Positions 719 to 10,598 of a DNA stretch of 64,000 nucleotides are shown here, piece by piece. Source of the DNA: a virus; IMG/VR virus record IMGVR_UViG_3300027969_003844, positions 32,001-96,000 of that record; one strand, written 5' to 3'. A program made the translations under genes and the position numbers. Each line of letters starts with the position of its first letter. Position 1 is the stretch's first letter. The notes below the pieces were generated by a model. The model saw only the letters and a program-made list of their open reading frames with translations, made no database searches and was not told where the DNA came from.

Positions 719-1057
719 TCAGTAAGGATTAAAACTACTGCCACATCCACATGATGTTTGGGCATTTGGGTTATCAATAACAAAACGTGAACCTGTTAAG
801 TCGTCCTTAAAGTCAATGGTAGCACTTGATAGATATTGCATACTCATTGAGTCAATGATTACACTAACTCCGTTCTGTTCAAATGTAAAGTCGTCTTCGT
901 TTACATCTTCGTCAAATGTGAAGCCGTATTCCATACCTGAACAGCCTCCACCTTGCACAAAAATACGTAGTGCTTTTCCTGCTAACTCTGCATCTTGATT
1001 TGCAATGTTTTTAATTTGTGAAAATGCAGAATCTGTAATGTTTACTGAACCATTCAT
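719..1057 (-). CDS. erpA: A-type Fe-S cluster carrier ErpA (IscA/HesB family)
   Basis: [20 protein letters not shown] and C-terminal [14 protein letters not shown]. Confidence 0.92.
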
Positions 1058-1540: not shown

Positions 1541-2056
1541 TTAGCCTTCGTAAGTAGCAGAGTTGGCACCATGCTCAAATACTTCAACTGATTTAATTTT
1601 TACAGTTGGATTGATTGGATATCGCATGTCACCGCTTGCAAGTAATTCTGCCATCTTATCATAACACAGCTTGGCAAACATTTCACACCCTACACCAGGC
1701 ACAATTCTTAAATCACACAAGGCGCCGCGCTCATATGGGACTGTGCTTTCTGGATTAGGTGAGCCCATGTTAACAATACTATTCATTTCTTTGAAGAATG
1801 CCAACATTGGATCGTCTTCGGCAACTACCAAAGTATGGTCAAACATGTAGTCTGCCCAGGCTTTGAATTCTTTAAGTCCACCAAAGTCCATGCACCAGTT
1901 TTTATCGTCTAATGTATCGCATTCAAATACAAGCTTGATGCCAATTGAATATCCATGCAAAGTTGAGCAATGCGAGTGTGATGCTCTCCACTGCCTAAAA
2001 CAGCATGATAAGCCGCGATCGTTTCCGTAAGTTTTTGTTGAGTAAAATTTTGCCAT
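1541..2056 (-). CDS. queD: 6-carboxy-5,6,7,8-tetrahydropterin synthase (QueD/PTPS)
   Basis: HCSTLHGYS, MDFGGLK, FDHT, GCE, VEVFEH motifs; start at ATG 2056 after AAGGAG. Confidence 0.9.
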   Translation of the reverse strand: MAKFYSTKTYGNDRGLSCCFRQWRASHSHCSTLHGYSIGIKLVFECDTLDDKNWCMDFGGLKEFKAWADYMFDHTLVVAEDDPMLAFFKEMNSIVNMGSPNPESTVPYERGALCDLRIVPGVGCEMFAKLCYDKMAELLASGDMRYPINPTVKIKSVEVFEHGANSATYEG

Positions 2057-2084
2057 TGTTATCTCCTTTAGATTTAGCAATGAC

Positions 2085-2122
2085 GGCAGAGTTTATTAAT
2101 CGGGATGACGCCTGAGACCGAT
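2085..2122 (-). promoter_or_regulatory. candidate preQ1-I-like riboswitch aptamer in queD leader
   Basis: Minus strand AUCGG-UCUCAGGCGUCAUC-CCGAU-UAAUAAACUCUGCC: 5-bp P1, loop ending CAUC, A-rich tail ending AAAC. Confidence 0.6.
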
Positions 2123-2140
2123 ACAGTATATATCATGAAT

Positions 2141-2734
2141 TTATCTTGATGGTAACTCGTTAATGCCAAGACTAGAAAAGGCACGTTGTACTCCGACTAC
2201 CTGGCTCCAGCAGTCCCATAGCGCATGATGGGCGGCAGTTCGAGGACGTTCCAGTCCCGGCACCAATGCATACAGTGTACGTGCATCACGAGCTTGCCAG
2301 TAATTCCATGCAACACCTCGCTTGAGTTCTCGGCTAAAATGTTCTAGAATATTCAAGTCAAAGCCAGTACCATTAGCCCAAATAGCGTCAACTCCACCAC
2401 ACCACTTATGAAAGTCACGTAAGACTTCGGCCAACGGTTGACGATCTTCTTCAGCAAATGCTTCAGCTCTTACTTCTTCGCTTTGTTTACTCCACCATTC
2501 AAGTGTAGCATCATCAATAACATGGTCAGTGCCTTCAAAGCTTTCAAAGCTTAGACGACGATAAAAGCTGTCCATCTTATTTGGACCATTTAATACACTA
2601 TCATCTGCCCAGGGGTTGAAACGAACAGCACCGATAGTAAGCATTAGACTATTTGGTTTTGTTCCCAATGTTTCCAAGTCAACCATAACGTGATTGCCAG
2701 GATTATCAAAATTAAACATCTTGTTTTGCATCAT
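2141..2734 (-). CDS. DEDDh 3'-5' exonuclease (DexA/Rv2179c-like)
   Basis: MVDLETLG, WANGTGFD, RDART, HHALWDC motifs. Confidence 0.85.
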   Translation of the reverse strand: MMQNKMFNFDNPGNHVMVDLETLGTKPNSLMLTIGAVRFNPWADDSVLNGPNKMDSFYRRLSFESFEGTDHVIDDATLEWWSKQSEEVRAEAFAEEDRQPLAEVLRDFHKWCGGVDAIWANGTGFDLNILEHFSRELKRGVAWNYWQARDARTLYALVPGLERPRTAAHHALWDCWSQVVGVQRAFSSLGINELPSR

Positions 2735-2897
2735 TGGTAACTTCTTTCTTTGTTAACGACCAAGAGCCATCTTTGTTGTCAATCCAAGTTAATGTATCAC
2801 CAGATTGCCATCCTTGCATCTCTAAGAGATCTGGTGGTAAAGGTAGAAGAAGATCGCCAGTGTCAGGATCTTCTTCTACTGTAATAGTCCATTTCAT
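2712..2897 (-). CDS. AbrB/SpoVT-like small DNA-binding protein
   Basis: GDLLLPLPPDLLEMQGWQSGDTLTW swapped-hairpin pattern. Confidence 0.65.
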   Translation of the reverse strand: MKWTITVEEDPDTGDLLLPLPPDLLEMQGWQSGDTLTWIDNKDGSWSLTKKEVTNDAKQDV

Positions 2898-3106
2898 GAT
2901 AGTAATCCGGCAGCAAGAGTTTTAATCTCGTCTTCCGTTAAGAAGTAATTGTACACGCTAGAAATGTATACATCACCATTTGTATCAAGTGATTCTTGCA
3001 GAAAGTCAACACTGTATAAAGTGTCCGGGTTCATGCATTTCTTTACTTTAACAGTTAGTTTAAAGGCAACTTCGTCTTTAACTACAAATTCTTTATCAGT
3101 AATCAT
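2894..3106 (-). CDS. hypothetical protein
   Basis: 70 aa ORF with ATGA overlaps. Confidence 0.65.
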   Translation of the reverse strand: MITDKEFVVKDEVAFKLTVKVKKCMNPDTLYSVDFLQESLDTNGDVYISSVYNYFLTEDEIKTLAAGLLS

Positions 3107-3324
3107 TTTATTGTATTTCCATTAAAATCTACGTTTGAAAGTATATGAGGATTTTCTTTTGCAAAACTTTCAAGTTCGTATGTGTTAGGATAATGTCGCA
3201 TAATCCAACGTGCTCGATCTCTGATCGCACCAGGAACCCTAGGGGTTACTTGTGGTATCAATAAATCCTCAATTAGTTTTAAGCCTTCTACCATTGCACG
3301 GTAGCGTTCATCTGGCATTGTCAT
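3103..3324 (-). CDS. BPSL0761-like small protein
   Basis: MTMPDERYRA...RARWIMRHYP signature. Confidence 0.7.
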   Translation of the reverse strand: MTMPDERYRAMVEGLKLIEDLLIPQVTPRVPGAIRDRARWIMRHYPNTYELESFAKENPHILSNVDFNGNTIK

Positions 3325-3391: not shown

Positions 3392-4255
3392 TTATGTCCA
3401 TAAACTATCTCTTGCTTTAATTAAGCGGATCATCATGGCTTCGTCTTCTTTTTCATAAGCGGCTTCAATCTTTTGTAGCAGTTTGTGAGCCTTATCTTGT
3501 GCTTTTTTAAGTGCAGGATCTGTGGGAGTACTAAAACTCAGCTTGCCACCATTGGCAATACGACTTGCTTCGCATGCCTCAGTCCATCCACTGGCATCAT
3601 AAGGATCGGGACGATTAGGATAAACAGTGGTCCACCATGTGTACAGTTCTTTGATTTCTTTTGCACGGATGGCTTGACCAGTAGGCTTACCATGATTAGG
3701 ATCAGTTTCTTCCACTCCCCAGTCTGTTCCCATTGTTAAGGTCATTGCCCAGTCAAGATGATCAAGACCTGCTTGGGGACAACGCCATGTGCGCCAGCGG
3801 AACCAACCACTTGCCCAAAATGGAGCATTGTACTTTGCTCGGTCTTCTTTACTGCCCCACGCAATATGGCTCCATGCTTGTTCTACTTCAACAAAATCAA
3901 CCAGCTCATTGAATAAGCAAGGCAAAAAGCGGTTCCCCACGTCGCACCATTGACCCGGTTTAATATCCCGGGCATGAGCGGTAAGACCATGAGTACGAGT
4001 AACCCAACGGTTGTTAATGTAGTATTTGATATCATATATTTTCCTTACAGGCCATGTTACGAAATCTTGGATGTAACCTAGACCTTCTTCGGCTAACCAG
4101 TATCGAAAGTTGTGTTTCATTTGTGCCTGGGTTGTCCAGTCATCCCATTCTTCACTTGTGCCGGCACTGAGCTTTTTAGTGCCACGAAGCCAGTCTGCAA
4201 AAGGACTGCAACTCCAATATCTTGAATGATGTGCCATTTTATTTTCTGTCGCCAA
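3392..4255 (-). CDS. Trp-rich hypothetical phage protein
   Basis: 287 aa ORF, no recognised motif. Confidence 0.75.
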   Translation of the reverse strand: MATENKMAHHSRYWSCSPFADWLRGTKKLSAGTSEEWDDWTTQAQMKHNFRYWLAEEGLGYIQDFVTWPVRKIYDIKYYINNRWVTRTHGLTAHARDIKPGQWCDVGNRFLPCLFNELVDFVEVEQAWSHIAWGSKEDRAKYNAPFWASGWFRWRTWRCPQAGLDHLDWAMTLTMGTDWGVEETDPNHGKPTGQAIRAKEIKELYTWWTTVYPNRPDPYDASGWTEACEASRIANGGKLSFSTPTDPALKKAQDKAHKLLQKIEAAYEKEDEAMMIRLIKARDSLWT

Positions 4256-4910
4256 ACAGTTGTAGTAAGTTTAAGAACAAGTTGATAAAGTTCATGTACA
4301 GTGAAAGTGCTCCAAAGATTTCTTCCCTACCAGTTTCTGTATCATGTGAAACAATTTCACGAATACTTTGCGTATCGTATGCAGTTAGTCCCATGAAGAT
4401 AATGATAGCTAATGCACTAATGACCATTTGCATTACTGTGCTACCAATAAAAATATTAATGATGCTGGCAATCACAATAGCAATAAGTCCAACAAACATC
4501 ATTTGACCAAGTGAGCTTAAATCTTTCTTGGTAAAGTATCCGTAAGCACTCATGGTACCAAATAACACTGCCGCACCCATAAAGGCTGTAAAGATACTGC
4601 CCATTGTGAATACTGCAAAGATTGTAGCAAAACTCAAGCCCATTAATGCGGCAAAGCCATGCAAGAATACTTGTAATCCACCTTTGCCCAAGTTATCAGA
4701 AGCAAATGTAAGACCAAGCATTGCCACCAATGGTGCAAACATTACAATCCATTTCATTACACCAGTAAAAAAGAACTCTAGTAGTTCTGGTGTAGTACCT
4801 ACCAAGTAACTGACAATCATGCTGGTAACAACTGCCAGGCTCATGTGTCCATATACACGGCCCATAGCTTCATTGATACCACTGGCTGAACGATAAGTTG
4901 TTGCGTACAT
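4239..4910 (-). CDS. yccA: Bax inhibitor-1/YccA family membrane protein
   Basis: about 7 hydrophobic segments, TKKDLS, AYDTQ, GALSLYMNFINLFLNLL. Confidence 0.9.
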   Translation of the reverse strand: MYATTYRSASGINEAMGRVYGHMSLAVVTSMIVSYLVGTTPELLEFFFTGVMKWIVMFAPLVAMLGLTFASDNLGKGGLQVFLHGFAALMGLSFATIFAVFTMGSIFTAFMGAAVLFGTMSAYGYFTKKDLSSLGQMMFVGLIAIVIASIINIFIGSTVMQMVISALAIIIFMGLTAYDTQSIREIVSHDTETGREEIFGALSLYMNFINLFLNLLQLFGDRK

Positions 4911-4922
4911 TTCAATCCCCTT

Positions 4923-5432
4923 TTAATCAATTTGGTTAACAATCACACCGGCTTGCTTTAAAAAGTCAACACCAAGACTGTTACGATAGTTATCACGATA
5001 AAATACTTGTCTAATACCACTTTGGTATATCAGCTTGGCACATTCGATGCAAGGTGAGTGTGTTACAAATAACACTGCATCTTCAGCACTTTCCGGACTG
5101 CGAGCCACCTTGGCAATTGCATTGGCTTCTGCATGAAGAACCTCTGGTTTGGTTTTTAACCCATATCGTACATTACGGCCTGCACCTTCGTGCCATCCTT
5201 CGTAAGGATAATTTTCGTTAAACTCTTCAGGGTCAATCCAACCACCTGCACCAGTATCGTATACTCGATCCTCACAGGTATTATCCCAACCGCTTGGCAT
5301 ACCATTATAACCAATGCTGATAATGCGATCGTCTTTGACAATGATACTACCAACTTGCAATCGAACTGCTGTAGAAAGACTTGCATAGTTCTCAGCAGTC
5401 TTCATATGTGCTTTGATGATTTTTGGTTTCAT
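4923..5432 (-). CDS. dCMP deaminase (ComEB-like)
   Basis: IGYNGMPSG, HAEANA, SPCIEC zinc motifs. Confidence 0.92.
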   Translation of the reverse strand: MKPKIIKAHMKTAENYASLSTAVRLQVGSIIVKDDRIISIGYNGMPSGWDNTCEDRVYDTGAGGWIDPEEFNENYPYEGWHEGAGRNVRYGLKTKPEVLHAEANAIAKVARSPESAEDAVLFVTHSPCIECAKLIYQSGIRQVFYRDNYRNSLGVDFLKQAGVIVNQID

Positions 5433-6586: not shown

Positions 6587-6927
6587 TATTTGTGCTCCTT
6601 TAAAAGATTACGTAGCATTTCATATTCGTTTCTAGCTTCATCTAGATTTGGATACTTCTTACATAAGTCATCAAGTTCCGCTTCCTCAGCCTTCTTTTTG
6701 TTAATCCAGTTTTTCATTTCTTGTAATTCGACATTAAACGAAATATTAACAGTAGCACCATGAAGATCCTCCGAACGTTCTCCGTTTACAACCTTAAACT
6801 TTTGTTGATTGCCGTCCCAAAAAACTACTCCACTACCATACGGTCCAGGTGCTCCGGTTTGTGAAACTATTAAATCAGCTGATGAAATATATTTTATCAT
6901 TTTACTATACAATTCCGAAAAAGTCAA
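6586..6927 (-). CDS. hypothetical protein
   Basis: ORF in operon; exact start uncertain. Confidence 0.6.
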   Translation of the reverse strand: MTFSELYSKMIKYISSADLIVSQTGAPGPYGSGVVFWDGNQQKFKVVNGERSEDLHGATVNISFNVELQEMKNWINKKKAEEAELDDLCKKYPNLDEARNEYEMLRNLLKEHK

Positions 6928-7462
6928 AGTGATTTTGTAAGGTCCAATCAGACATATCTGTAATTGGTTGTCCGTTATATGTGGTAAATTTAGAGTTCAA
7001 TACAGCATACCGACGGAAGAAAAACCAATTGTCTGCATTGGTCGATACCAACCCATTTTCGGTCAGAGTTTTATCGCTGGTTCTTTTTACCAAACAAGTA
7101 GGGGTATTTAGAGCCTGCTTAATTGTAATACGTCCTTCAATCAACAGATCTCTAACCGAGCTGGCAGGGATTACATGTTCAAATGTACTGTCAGCTTCAA
7201 CTACGCCTACTTCTCTGTAGTGGCTACCAATATTGCCTTGAATGGCATACTTGTGGTAACGTCTAACATGATGATCGATGCTATCTCTAATCAGCCGCGC
7301 CCGCATGTCGTCACTGAATACAGTATTACGATACATGTCAACCAAGCGATCAAGTTCGCTGGTAGTAAATTCTTCACACTGACTATATGCATCTGCGTTA
7401 CGTTGTACTCGTTTATAGACTTTTTCGTTAAACGAATCTATTGTTTCTTTAAGCGAGCTCAT
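6905..7462 (-). CDS. hypothetical protein with HNH-like EHxxP motif
   Basis: TFEHVIPAS; ATG at 7462 overlaps the upstream TAA (TAATG). Confidence 0.6.
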   Translation of the reverse strand: MSSLKETIDSFNEKVYKRVQRNADAYSQCEEFTTSELDRLVDMYRNTVFSDDMRARLIRDSIDHHVRRYHKYAIQGNIGSHYREVGVVEADSTFEHVIPASSVRDLLIEGRITIKQALNTPTCLVKRTSDKTLTENGLVSTNADNWFFFRRYAVLNSKFTTYNGQPITDMSDWTLQNHFDFFGIV

Positions 7463-8907: not shown

Positions 8908-9090
8908 TTAAAGTGATTTGATATGATTGATAACGGTGATTGCTTCTTTATAATCAGAATCTTCAAGCATCTGATTTTCATTTAGTTCTGTTATCATTTT
9001 TCTTGCAAGTACTTGCAACTCAAAATTTGACAGTGGATAAGCCTGTGTCCAACGAATTTTATATCCGTTGAGGTGATCTTTATTTTCCAT
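8908..9090 (-). CDS. hypothetical protein
   Basis: 60 aa ORF. Confidence 0.55.
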   Translation of the reverse strand: MENKDHLNGYKIRWTQAYPLSNFELQVLARKMITELNENQMLEDSDYKEAITVINHIKSL

Positions 9091-9093
9091 GAA

Positions 9094-9243
9094 TTAAGCC
9101 ATTTCGCTCAACTGGTCATTGACGCCCATGTTCTTAAAAGCATCAAGTACAAATGTAACTGGTACATTCAATTGCTTGGCGATTTCATTGGCACTAAGAC
9201 CTTCAATAAAAAGTTCCTGGATGTCGTAATCCAATTCTGCCAT
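9094..9243 (-). CDS. small HTH-like protein (49 aa, not in ORF track)
   Basis: IQELFIEGLSANEIAKQLNVPVTFV is HTH-like. Confidence 0.55.
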   Translation of the reverse strand: MAELDYDIQELFIEGLSANEIAKQLNVPVTFVLDAFKNMGVNDQLSEMA

Positions 9244-9248
9244 TTTAC

Positions 9249-9485
9249 TCATTTTGTTTCCGTTTCAAGTTGTTGAATTTGAGCTTCTAAAAGATTAGCA
9301 TGAGCATTGCATAGCCCTGCTATCACTTTCATGATGCGTTGACGAGTTTGCAAATCAGTAGTCTGATATTGCGTTAGTCCATTGTTAATCATCTTAACCA
9401 GTTCATTTATGTTAGCATGACAACCGGTAGTACAATCATTGAGTTTGTCATTGGCTGCCTGCTGTTTGCTACGGTATCCACTCAT
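9249..9485 (-). CDS. hypothetical protein
   Basis: ATG 9485 with AAGGA RBS and ATGA overlap. Confidence 0.55.
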   Translation of the reverse strand: MSGYRSKQQAANDKLNDCTTGCHANINELVKMINNGLTQYQTTDLQTRQRIMKVIAGLCNAHANLLEAQIQQLETETK

Positions 9486-9946
9486 ACTGTTTCCTTTAAT
9501 GCGGCCAATGCTTCTTTCAATGAAACCAACTTGTTGCCTTTGTATGGCGAGCCAACAAACCATTCGCCGTCACGCATGATATAATAGTATTCGGCATCAC
9601 ACGCATCTACGCGATCAAGAAAGTCTGCAAAGGAATGATCTACCTTAAATTCTACATTTTTCTCACCGCGGTCACGACCGTAGAAGGTAGTCATCTTGCC
9701 GTACTTTTCGGCATACTCGCTAGTAGAGATACTTGGAGTAATATCAAATTGGCTGAATGGATGCTCTTCGCCGATCTGTTCTTTGAGACTAGAGATATCA
9801 CCAAGTGCAACCAAATGATTGGCCTTAGAAGAATCATAGTGCTCTTGCAGGATCTTGCCATTATGCTCGAGATAACCGTCCCAATGACAATAAACACTTT
9901 TACAAACTGTACCATGCATAACTGCGATGCGACTACGAGTACCCAT
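9482..9946 (-). CDS. hypothetical phage protein (YCHWDGY motif)
   Basis: MGTRSRIA...VYCHWDGY; AGGAG RBS, behind a sigma70 promoter. Confidence 0.75.
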   Translation of the reverse strand: MGTRSRIAVMHGTVCKSVYCHWDGYLEHNGKILQEHYDSSKANHLVALGDISSLKEQIGEEHPFSQFDITPSISTSEYAEKYGKMTTFYGRDRGEKNVEFKVDHSFADFLDRVDACDAEYYYIMRDGEWFVGSPYKGNKLVSLKEALAALKETV

Positions 9947-10042: not shown

Positions 10043-10314
10043 ACTTCTAGCATGTTGGCAGGGACATTAAACAACCCGAGACCAGTACGAACAAGAACAA
10101 ACTTGGTTTTAATCTTGTCAACTGTGCCGGTGTACGTGGTACCGTTGCGGTTGCTAGTAAACTTAACGGTACATCCATTTCGTAGTTGGCGTTTGGTTGA
10201 CTTTGCGAGTTGAGTGCGAGCAACTTGTACCGCTGAAAGTATGCTACTCAATTGCTCGTTTGTAAAAGTTTGCGTCATGATTGCGTAATTGATGTCTTGG
10301 ATAGATAGACTCAT
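10033..10314 (-). CDS. hypothetical protein with SH3/KOW-like C-terminus
   Basis: GCTVKFTS..GTTYTGTVDKIKTKFVLV; AAGGAG RBS. Confidence 0.65.
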   Translation of the reverse strand: MSLSIQDINYAIMTQTFTNEQLSSILSAVQVARTQLAKSTKRQLRNGCTVKFTSNRNGTTYTGTVDKIKTKFVLVRTGLGLFNVPANMLEVVA

Positions 10315-10325
10315 TTTGGTTCTCC

Positions 10326-10598
10326 TTAAACTAAATCAACTTGAATTTGTTTGCCACGAATCGTAGTACCAAGTCCAGTGGGCATTGGCCTGCGAAGTGC
10401 TTTAGCAAGACCTCGATCAACTGCTAGCAGGTTCATAGCATCATAGCAAAGGCTACGAGCGTTGACTGTAGCAAACTGCTCGCTCATTTGCTTGATTGTA
10501 AGGTACATACCAATGTCATTTTCACTGCCATCGCCCTTGAAAATGACACGGAATTTTTGGCTGTTTTTGAAGCCGTCAACGATAGTTGGTGTACGCAT
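10326..10598 (-). CDS. hypothetical protein
   Basis: 90 aa, AAGGA RBS, behind promoter. Confidence 0.65.
   Translation of the reverse strand: MRTPTIVDGFKNSQKFRVIFKGDGSENDIGMYLTIKQMSEQFATVNARSLCYDAMNLLAVDRGLAKALRRPMPTGLGTTIRGKQIQVDLV

Follow-up and report, generated by a model that had tools for sequence, protein, structure and literature searches.

A pseudoknot riboswitch candidate, specific to uncultured phages, in the leader of queD

Introduction

QueD is the first committed enzyme of 7-deazaguanine synthesis, a pathway by which phages protect their DNA from restriction. The stretch of viral DNA analysed here, hereafter the window, comprises 64,000 nucleotides with a GC content of 39% and carries a queD-like gene preceded by a short leader. 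It corresponds to bases 32001-96000 of a 105-kb IMG/VR virus record that is estimated to be 32% complete at this length and is therefore a fragment of a jumbo phage. A preliminary description had read the leader as a preQ1-I-like riboswitch aptamer exerting feedback control of 7-deazaguanine synthesis. Riboswitches have been called "a rare feature in phages" (PMC9004378), and the locus raises the question of which RNA structure the leader encodes, how this structure relates to the preQ1-I family, and in which direction it would control QueD.

Results

The queD gene of the window and its surroundings

The genes around queD in the window are all located on the minus strand. The following features lie near the gene:

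1541-2056, minus strand: QueD-like 6-carboxytetrahydropterin synthase (PTPS family), 171 aa, the putatively regulated gene (ORF and profile matches)
2140-2057, minus strand: leader of 84 nt, between the exonuclease gene and queD
2734-2141, minus strand: Rv2179c-like exonuclease, the upstream gene (profile match)
719-1057, minus strand: ErpA/IscA-type Fe-S cluster insertion protein (NF010147, 149 bits)
4239-4910, minus strand: Bax1-I family membrane protein
4923-5432, minus strand: dCMP deaminase

The earlier assignment of the downstream gene as a phage queD was borne out by the PF01242 profile (57 bits), by the family phrog_2389, annotated as 'QueD-like' (E-value of 4e-36), and by an identity of 30-49% to QueD of 107 cultured phages in tblastn comparisons. 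Values of 42-49% were obtained with QueD of cultured phages that have 7-deazaguanine gene clusters. In cultured phages this QueD family is found in QueE-QueC-QueD-FolE-DpdA clusters, and in Rhizobium phage RHEph04 the QueD homologue is found within a QueE-QueC-QueD-FolE...TGT-like cluster. Residues 19-36 of the window QueD hold the motif CSTLHGY, common to the phage QueD family, with a Cys where the first zinc histidine would align; by comparison with the C-x3-HGH motif of E. coli QueD, the metal site would be unusual.

Only QueD was detected in the window's own 105-kb record (about 32% complete), where QueC, FolE, TGT and QueE were not found. In the complete 355-kb genome of a relative (G002), FolE lies about 3.6 kb upstream of QueD, and a very divergent QueE (TIGR03365, 51.7 bits), of which only the N-terminal 50 aa match QueE models, about 1.7 kb downstream. 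The corresponding genes are, with the first three numbered within the fetched locus L122 (G002:133001-146000):

2382-3149: FolE
6723-7208: QueD
8934-9830: divergent QueE
G002:173864-174517: QueC-like PP-loop ORF

Neither the PF01702 profile nor tblastn revealed a TGT or DpdA in G002.

A 45-nucleotide pseudoknot directly upstream of queD

The leader contains an H-type pseudoknot of 45 nt at 2122-2078 (minus strand), directly upstream of the phage QueD gene. Its parts, given in RNA letters, are:

2118-2122, minus strand: P1 5′ strand AUCGG, which pairs with 2099-2103
2113-2117, minus strand: loop L1, UCUCA, as parsed among 100 distinct aptamers
2106-2112, minus strand: P2 5′ strand, GGCG (P2a, variable) followed by U (mismatch partner) and CA, from covariation
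2104-2105, minus strand: loop L2, UC, in which the C next to the P1 3′ strand is invariant
2099-2103, minus strand: P1 3′ strand CCGAU, partner of the P1 5′ strand, from covariation
2089-2098, minus strand: loop L3, UAAUAAAC (8 nt) followed by UC, with A invariant at positions 3, 5 and 7
2082-2088, minus strand: P2 3′ strand, UG followed by C (mismatch partner) and CGUC, partner of 2106-2112

The 5-bp stem AUCGG/CCGAU, the 14-nt loop ending in CAUC and the tail UAAUAAAC followed by UCUGCC read exactly as previously written. The loop-tail pairing suggested in the preliminary description also exists, but both registers offered for it, CAG/CUG and GGC/GCC, were wrong. Instead, covariation gives GGCG (2112-2109) paired with CGUC (2085-2082) and CA (2107-2106) paired with UG (2088-2087), with a U.C mismatch (2108/2086) between them. 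A plain minimum free energy (MFE) fold of the window leader displayed neither P1 nor the knot (z = +1.2), as is expected because the structure is a pseudoknot.

Covariation and conservation in two sets of leaders

Two sets of related leaders were aligned. Set 1 (alignment A1) contained 47 distinct leaders and came from 345 QueD relatives in viral contigs, of which 80 loci were fetched; the motif parses in 75 of these 80 and in the window. Set 2 (alignment A2) contained 56 distinct leaders upstream of a second QueD subfamily, first met in contigs of metagenome-assembled genomes (MAGs), which is about 41% identical to the window-type QueD in the one pair compared. This subfamily has at least 596 relatives, and the motif was present just upstream in 79 of the 80 loci fetched, so that about 96% of the loci sampled from both subfamilies carry it. 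A2 was aligned on P2 only, so that P1 was counted in it without any fitting to the model.

The preliminary description had proposed covariation among related leaders as a check, and P1 and P2 both covary in the two independent sets. In set 1, P1 was paired in 100% of cases, with double changes in 4 of its 5 pairs, and P2 in 88.5%, with double changes in 5 of 5; pairing amounted to 34-52% in controls with the partners slid by 1-3 columns, and none of 500 shuffles reached the observed covariation score. In set 2, P1 was 99.6% paired, and pairing overall reached 93.7%, as against 33-50% with slid partners. All 5 pairs of P2a covary, with 86-88% of the cells paired in the two sets. The G-C pair that closes P1 was invariant in the 47 as well as in the 56 distinct sequences. 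G.U pairs were frequent and, in both sets, occurred on the sense strand only as written, which indicates an RNA rather than a DNA element.

P2 spans 4-7 variable pairs, the U.C mismatch and 2 inner pairs, giving 7-10 positions. Among 100 distinct aptamers, UCA occurred with UCUGC in 96 and UCG with UCCGC in 4, with no mixed combination; the C-G pair and the U.C mismatch are invariant, and the A-U pair switches to G-C in those 4 of 100, never on one side alone. As UCA faces UGC within P2, L2 is just UC. The last C of L2 (C19, an invariant column of A1) never varies among the variants UC, AC, CC, CUC, UUC and UUUC; the base before it was U in 78, A in 10 and C in 6 distinct aptamers, L2 being longer in 6. 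L1 consists of NCU plus 0-8 nt (3-11 nt in total): its first position is free (ACU in 39, UCU in 34 and CCU in 27 of the 100) and the CU at positions 2-3 is invariant.

The A-rich part of L3 was 8 nt long in 99 of the 100 distinct sequences, with A invariant at positions 3, 5 and 7, and was followed by UC. Position 4 of L3 follows the third pair of P1, being C or U when this pair is C-G (71 of 71) and A when it is A-U or U-A (28 of 28). Such a pattern is as docking of the loop would show, and L3 is probably docked in the P1 minor groove. About 20 unpaired positions show little or no variation, and they cluster round the P1/P2 junction. Some aptamers are shared unchanged between the two QueD subfamilies, which points to stronger conservation of the RNA than of the QueD protein.

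Exclusive association of the motif with QueD

A covariance model built from set 2 alone, without the window (R3), matched the window at 2078-2122 (minus strand) with 32.5 bits and an E-value of 7e-6, and the next match in an unfiltered search of all 64 kb had an E-value of 0.5; the window pseudoknot is far beyond chance. Another model (R1) was run on five records of 105-355 kb: each had exactly one significant copy, which preceded QueD in every case, and no further copies appeared before other genes of these five genomes.

We also performed scans with degenerate patterns that took no account of the gene downstream. Prokaryote genomes, 596 Gb in all, yielded 23 stretches, 5 of which were true motif matches; all five preceded QueD-like ORFs on short MAG contigs, which are probably binned phage fragments. 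In viral contigs at least 120 matches were obtained, and among those listed a complementary P1 was present in 118. QueD lay within 700 nt in 116 of the matches listed, 114 with P1 and 2 without it, and every one of the 118 assessable matches was in a QueD leader, with or without P1, two others being too short to judge. Two of the assessable contigs differ in that a methyltransferase-like ORF of about 240 aa intervenes between the pseudoknot and QueD (L325:4617-5339, minus strand, and L330:4432-5163, plus strand; PF08003 with an E-value of 9e-11 for one of the two), with QueD directly after it; there the candidate switch would gate the ribosome site of the methyltransferase-like ORF. Another contig (L204:797-833) carries a truncated second aptamer 5′ half, with P1, the loop and the P1 3′ strand and no tail, about 600 nt upstream of the full copy (19.3 bits).

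Besides the five MAG contigs, the motif was found only in uncultured phage contigs. A blastn search with the leader against 50,697 records of cultured phages gave no match, and no model match was obtained upstream of QueD in Rhizobium phage RHEph04, Flavobacterium phage immuto, Chryseobacterium phage MA9V-3 or Cellulophaga phage phiST, four phages in which QueD is packed inside operons. Neighbouring genes vary among the relatives of the window and no partner gene is conserved beside the motif; QueD and its leader behave as a self-contained module amid a mosaic neighbourhood.

Relationship to preQ1-I and other RNA families

Nothing in the whole window reached the gathering threshold of any Rfam 15 family. 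The preQ1-I model RF00522, which has a curated threshold of 39 bits, gave no match at E<=10 on the window leader or on those of L007 and L017, whereas a control preQ1-I aptamer of Bacillus spizizenii (B. subtilis type) scored 44.9 bits with the same settings. The assignment as a preQ1-I aptamer, for which a search with the Rfam model had been suggested, was thus not supported. Against membership in this family stand the silence of RF00522, the variable L1 uridine and the long P2 with its fixed mismatch.

The likeness itself was in part confirmed. Like preQ1-I (RF00522; B. subtilis queC, T. tengcongensis and C. antarcticum; PMC11625349), the leader forms a small H-type pseudoknot with a 5-bp P1 and a conserved closing G-C pair, it has an A-rich L3 that may read the P1 minor groove, and it is placed before a gene of the 7-deazaguanine pathway. 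In preQ1-I this G-C floor is accompanied by a specificity C directly 5′ of the P1 3′ strand, the base before it being U in type I and A in types II and III (PMC11625349), and the invariant C of the leader, immediately 5′ of the P1 3′ strand and mostly preceded by U, resembles type I. The Rfam model, the L1 uridine and the short P2 speak against it. The position of U6, the uridine that reads the ligand in preQ1-I directly after the P1 5′ strand, is A in 39, U in 34 and C in 27 aptamers, with CU invariant at L1 positions 2-3; P2 comprises 7-10 positions, an invariant U.C mismatch among them, instead of 3-4 bp; L2 has 2 nt, and an extra UC follows L3. In preQ1-I, moreover, the P2 3′ strand contains SD bases or feeds a terminator (OFF), whereas P2 of the leader has neither SD nor AUG and its 3′ strand, as the anti-start strand, predicts ON control. 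A P1-based model (R2) had its best non-self match, of 10.6 bits, exactly on genuine Bacillus preQ1-I aptamers, which amounts to a faint resemblance in P1, in the C and in the A-rich loop. We consider the element an uncatalogued H-type pseudoknot riboswitch candidate with a preQ1-I-like core and not a preQ1-I member.

Other Rfam matches at E<=10 were of about 14 bits, to freshwater-2, preQ1-II and FTHFS, and were carried mainly by the SD/AUG stretch. The FTHFS motif (RF02981), whose consensus is a UGCGG..CCGCA hairpin followed by AAAUCCUG, found no support as a possible sibling: it was absent from five related genomes, which have no FTHFS gene, and a pattern made from its consensus gave chance matches in coding sequence only. 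This motif is not mentioned in the main text of its source paper. Freshwater-2 (RF02980) was likewise discarded as the identity of the leader motif, being a real but separate motif elsewhere in related phages. It exceeded the threshold in two jumbo-phage relatives, L088 (G003:41445-41534) and L089 (G004:171875-171946), with 64.6 and 60 bits; in the window's own genome the matches were weak (15-18 bits), one of them at window position 10312-10361 (minus strand). The above-threshold matches point to the jumbo-phage group of the window relatives as a source of freshwater-2, an orphan motif known only from metagenomes.

Two further riboswitches invite comparison. In the translational ON adenine riboswitch add of Vibrio vulnificus, the ligand-stabilised aptamer captures a strand that otherwise masks the ribosome-binding region, and the wiring proposed below would be analogous, an aptamer pairing capturing the masking strand so that translation goes on. 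Unlike the leader pseudoknot, add has a three-way-junction purine aptamer of unrelated sequence and precedes a catabolic, not a biosynthetic, gene. THF-II (the folE motif) is a simple hairpin with OFF logic that holds a pterin ligand between conserved pyrimidines inside a helix; the leader resembles it in belonging to a gene of the GTP-to-pterin branch and in the invariant U.C of P2, and differs from it as a pseudoknot with predicted ON logic. No Rfam match to THF-II was obtained on the three leaders.

Expression platform and promoter

The features between the pseudoknot and the beginning of queD, together with a promoter candidate, are:

2078-2084, minus strand: masking helix 5′ strand GUCAUUG, which shares GUC with the P2 3′ strand (MFE fold)
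2063-2068, minus strand: SD AAGGAG, within the masking hairpin, in its loop and inner stem (sequence and fold)
2052-2058, minus strand: masking helix 3′ strand CAAUGGC, i.e. the start codon plus the GC of codon 2 (MFE fold)
2056-2054, minus strand: start codon ATG (sequence)
2127-2155, minus strand: weak and uncertain promoter candidate, TTACCA, 17 nt, TGa-TATATA (read by eye)

When the region after UCUGC was folded (MFE), the P2 3′ strand also acted as the masking strand in all 53 distinct leaders, covering the start codon or the SD; of its first five bases, no fewer than 2 and usually 4 were paired. The partner was AUG..+5 in 45 and the SD in 13 of the 53, and in many relatives the P2 5′ strand, AUGGCAU, is a copy of the start region. 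The P2 3′ strand takes part in both pairings, which are mutually exclusive. The median energy of the mask was -10.6 kcal/mol when free and -5.1 kcal/mol when the P2 3′ strand was held; medians for the P2 duplex alone and the P1 hairpin were about -6.2 and -4.5 kcal/mol, pseudoknot energies being approximations only. As the mask is more stable than the P2 duplex, the default state should be masked. Since the P2 3′ strand is the anti-start/anti-SD strand, formation of the knot should unmask the ribosome site and turn translation on rather than repress it, and the feedback repression envisaged in the preliminary description was not supported. With the P2 strand held, part of the AUG was still paired in most leaders, so unmasking may be partial, and the remaining helix, stacked coaxially on P2, could keep some masking.

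Both protein subfamilies have GCN (Ala) as the second codon of QueD (window 2052-2053). The RNA structure may constrain the N-terminus of QueD, because the first two bases of this codon, GC, sit in the masking helix, where their partner is the anti-start strand.

Many relatives possess a consensus sigma-70 promoter (TTGACn, 16-17 nt, TATAAT) that ends 7 nt before P1, and the transcript therefore starts at the aptamer. A promoter scan of the window called no good promoter, the candidate at 2127-2155 included, and this candidate would place the start 2-3 nt inside P1. Hence, the window leader may arise from transcription that continues out of the exonuclease gene upstream (read-through).

Discussion

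The conserved pseudoknot and the masking hairpin of the queD leaders form an aptamer and an expression platform joined by mutually exclusive pairings, as is characteristic of riboswitches. We consider it probable, with moderate confidence, that the element, a riboswitch candidate confined to uncultured phages, acts in cis and governs the translation of QueD by a switch between mask and knot, the knot being the ON state. Without extra stabilisation the masking hairpin would win and translation would be off. A candidate ligand occupying the P1/P2 junction or the U.C site would retain the P2 3′ strand within the knot and leave the mask with roughly half of its stability, and translation would be turned on. 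To judge by the invariant C and the G-C floor, the candidate ligand may have a guanine-like face and might be a 7-deazaguanine or a pterin, for instance dihydroneopterin triphosphate, the substrate of QueD. It would be unusual for a biosynthetic gene to be switched on by a product of its pathway. Somewhat more tentatively, at a little less than even chances, we propose a new phage-only class, and not a preQ1-I subtype, that senses a guanine-faced intermediate on the way from GTP to 7-deazaguanine and switches QueD on, with dihydroneopterin triphosphate, CDG and preQ0 as candidates.

Alternatively, the conserved unpaired bases could be there for a protein to bind, or have a purely structural or kinetic role. 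Translational control without a ligand, exerted by a bound protein (QueD itself or another phage factor) or by a folding timer, is an unlikely explanation, though one to be taken seriously. In its timer form the knot would fold first during transcription and allow a burst of translation before the more stable mask takes over, and indeed the knot strands are transcribed before the mask 3′ strand and the mask is thermodynamically favoured over the P2 duplex (-10.6 vs about -6.2 kcal/mol). Phages use many protein-RNA translational operators. However, the about 20 invariant or near-invariant unpaired bases round the P1/P2 junction, together with a fixed mismatch within a helix and the L3-P1 covariation, form the pattern of a small-ligand aptamer such as preQ1-I and not of a simple timer, and the mosaic neighbourhood offers no conserved partner gene beside the motif.

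Distinctly less probable is a divergent but ordinary preQ1-I riboswitch that binds preQ1 or preQ0 and represses QueD by feedback. The shared topology, the 5-bp P1 with its G-C floor, the A-rich L3 and the pathway gene downstream are what such a riboswitch would have, the U before the invariant C is the hallmark of type I (PMC11625349), and the R2 match fell on genuine Bacillus aptamers; yet RF00522 stayed silent on three leaders while detecting its control, the base equivalent to U6 is A, U or C in near-equal shares, and P2 is longer than 3-4 bp with a fixed U.C. In addition, P2 never contains the SD or the AUG and is in competition with the masking helix, so that the wiring is the reverse of OFF control. 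An operator, a promoter feature or some other element acting at the DNA level, or a chance hairpin, is most improbable: the motif adjoins promoters in many relatives, but the crossing covariation of a pseudoknot already contradicts this explanation, as do the strand-specific G.U pairs, the pairing with the start codon and the highly significant match from the independently built model R3.

No description of the present motif was found in the literature searched, and Rfam 15 does not contain it. IMG/VR contains 345 relatives of the window QueD and at least 596 of the second subfamily, and about 96% of the loci sampled were positive; the motif thus appears widespread in uncultured phages, and it links candidate RNA sensing to 7-deazaguanine metabolism. 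The predicted ON wiring is the reverse of that of every known preQ1 riboswitch, and the 45-nt aptamer candidate could reveal a new ligand or a new way to read a 7-deazapurine or a pterin. If the reading as a new class is true, this would be the first activating riboswitch of the 7-deazaguanine pathway and among the very few riboswitch classes confined to viruses.
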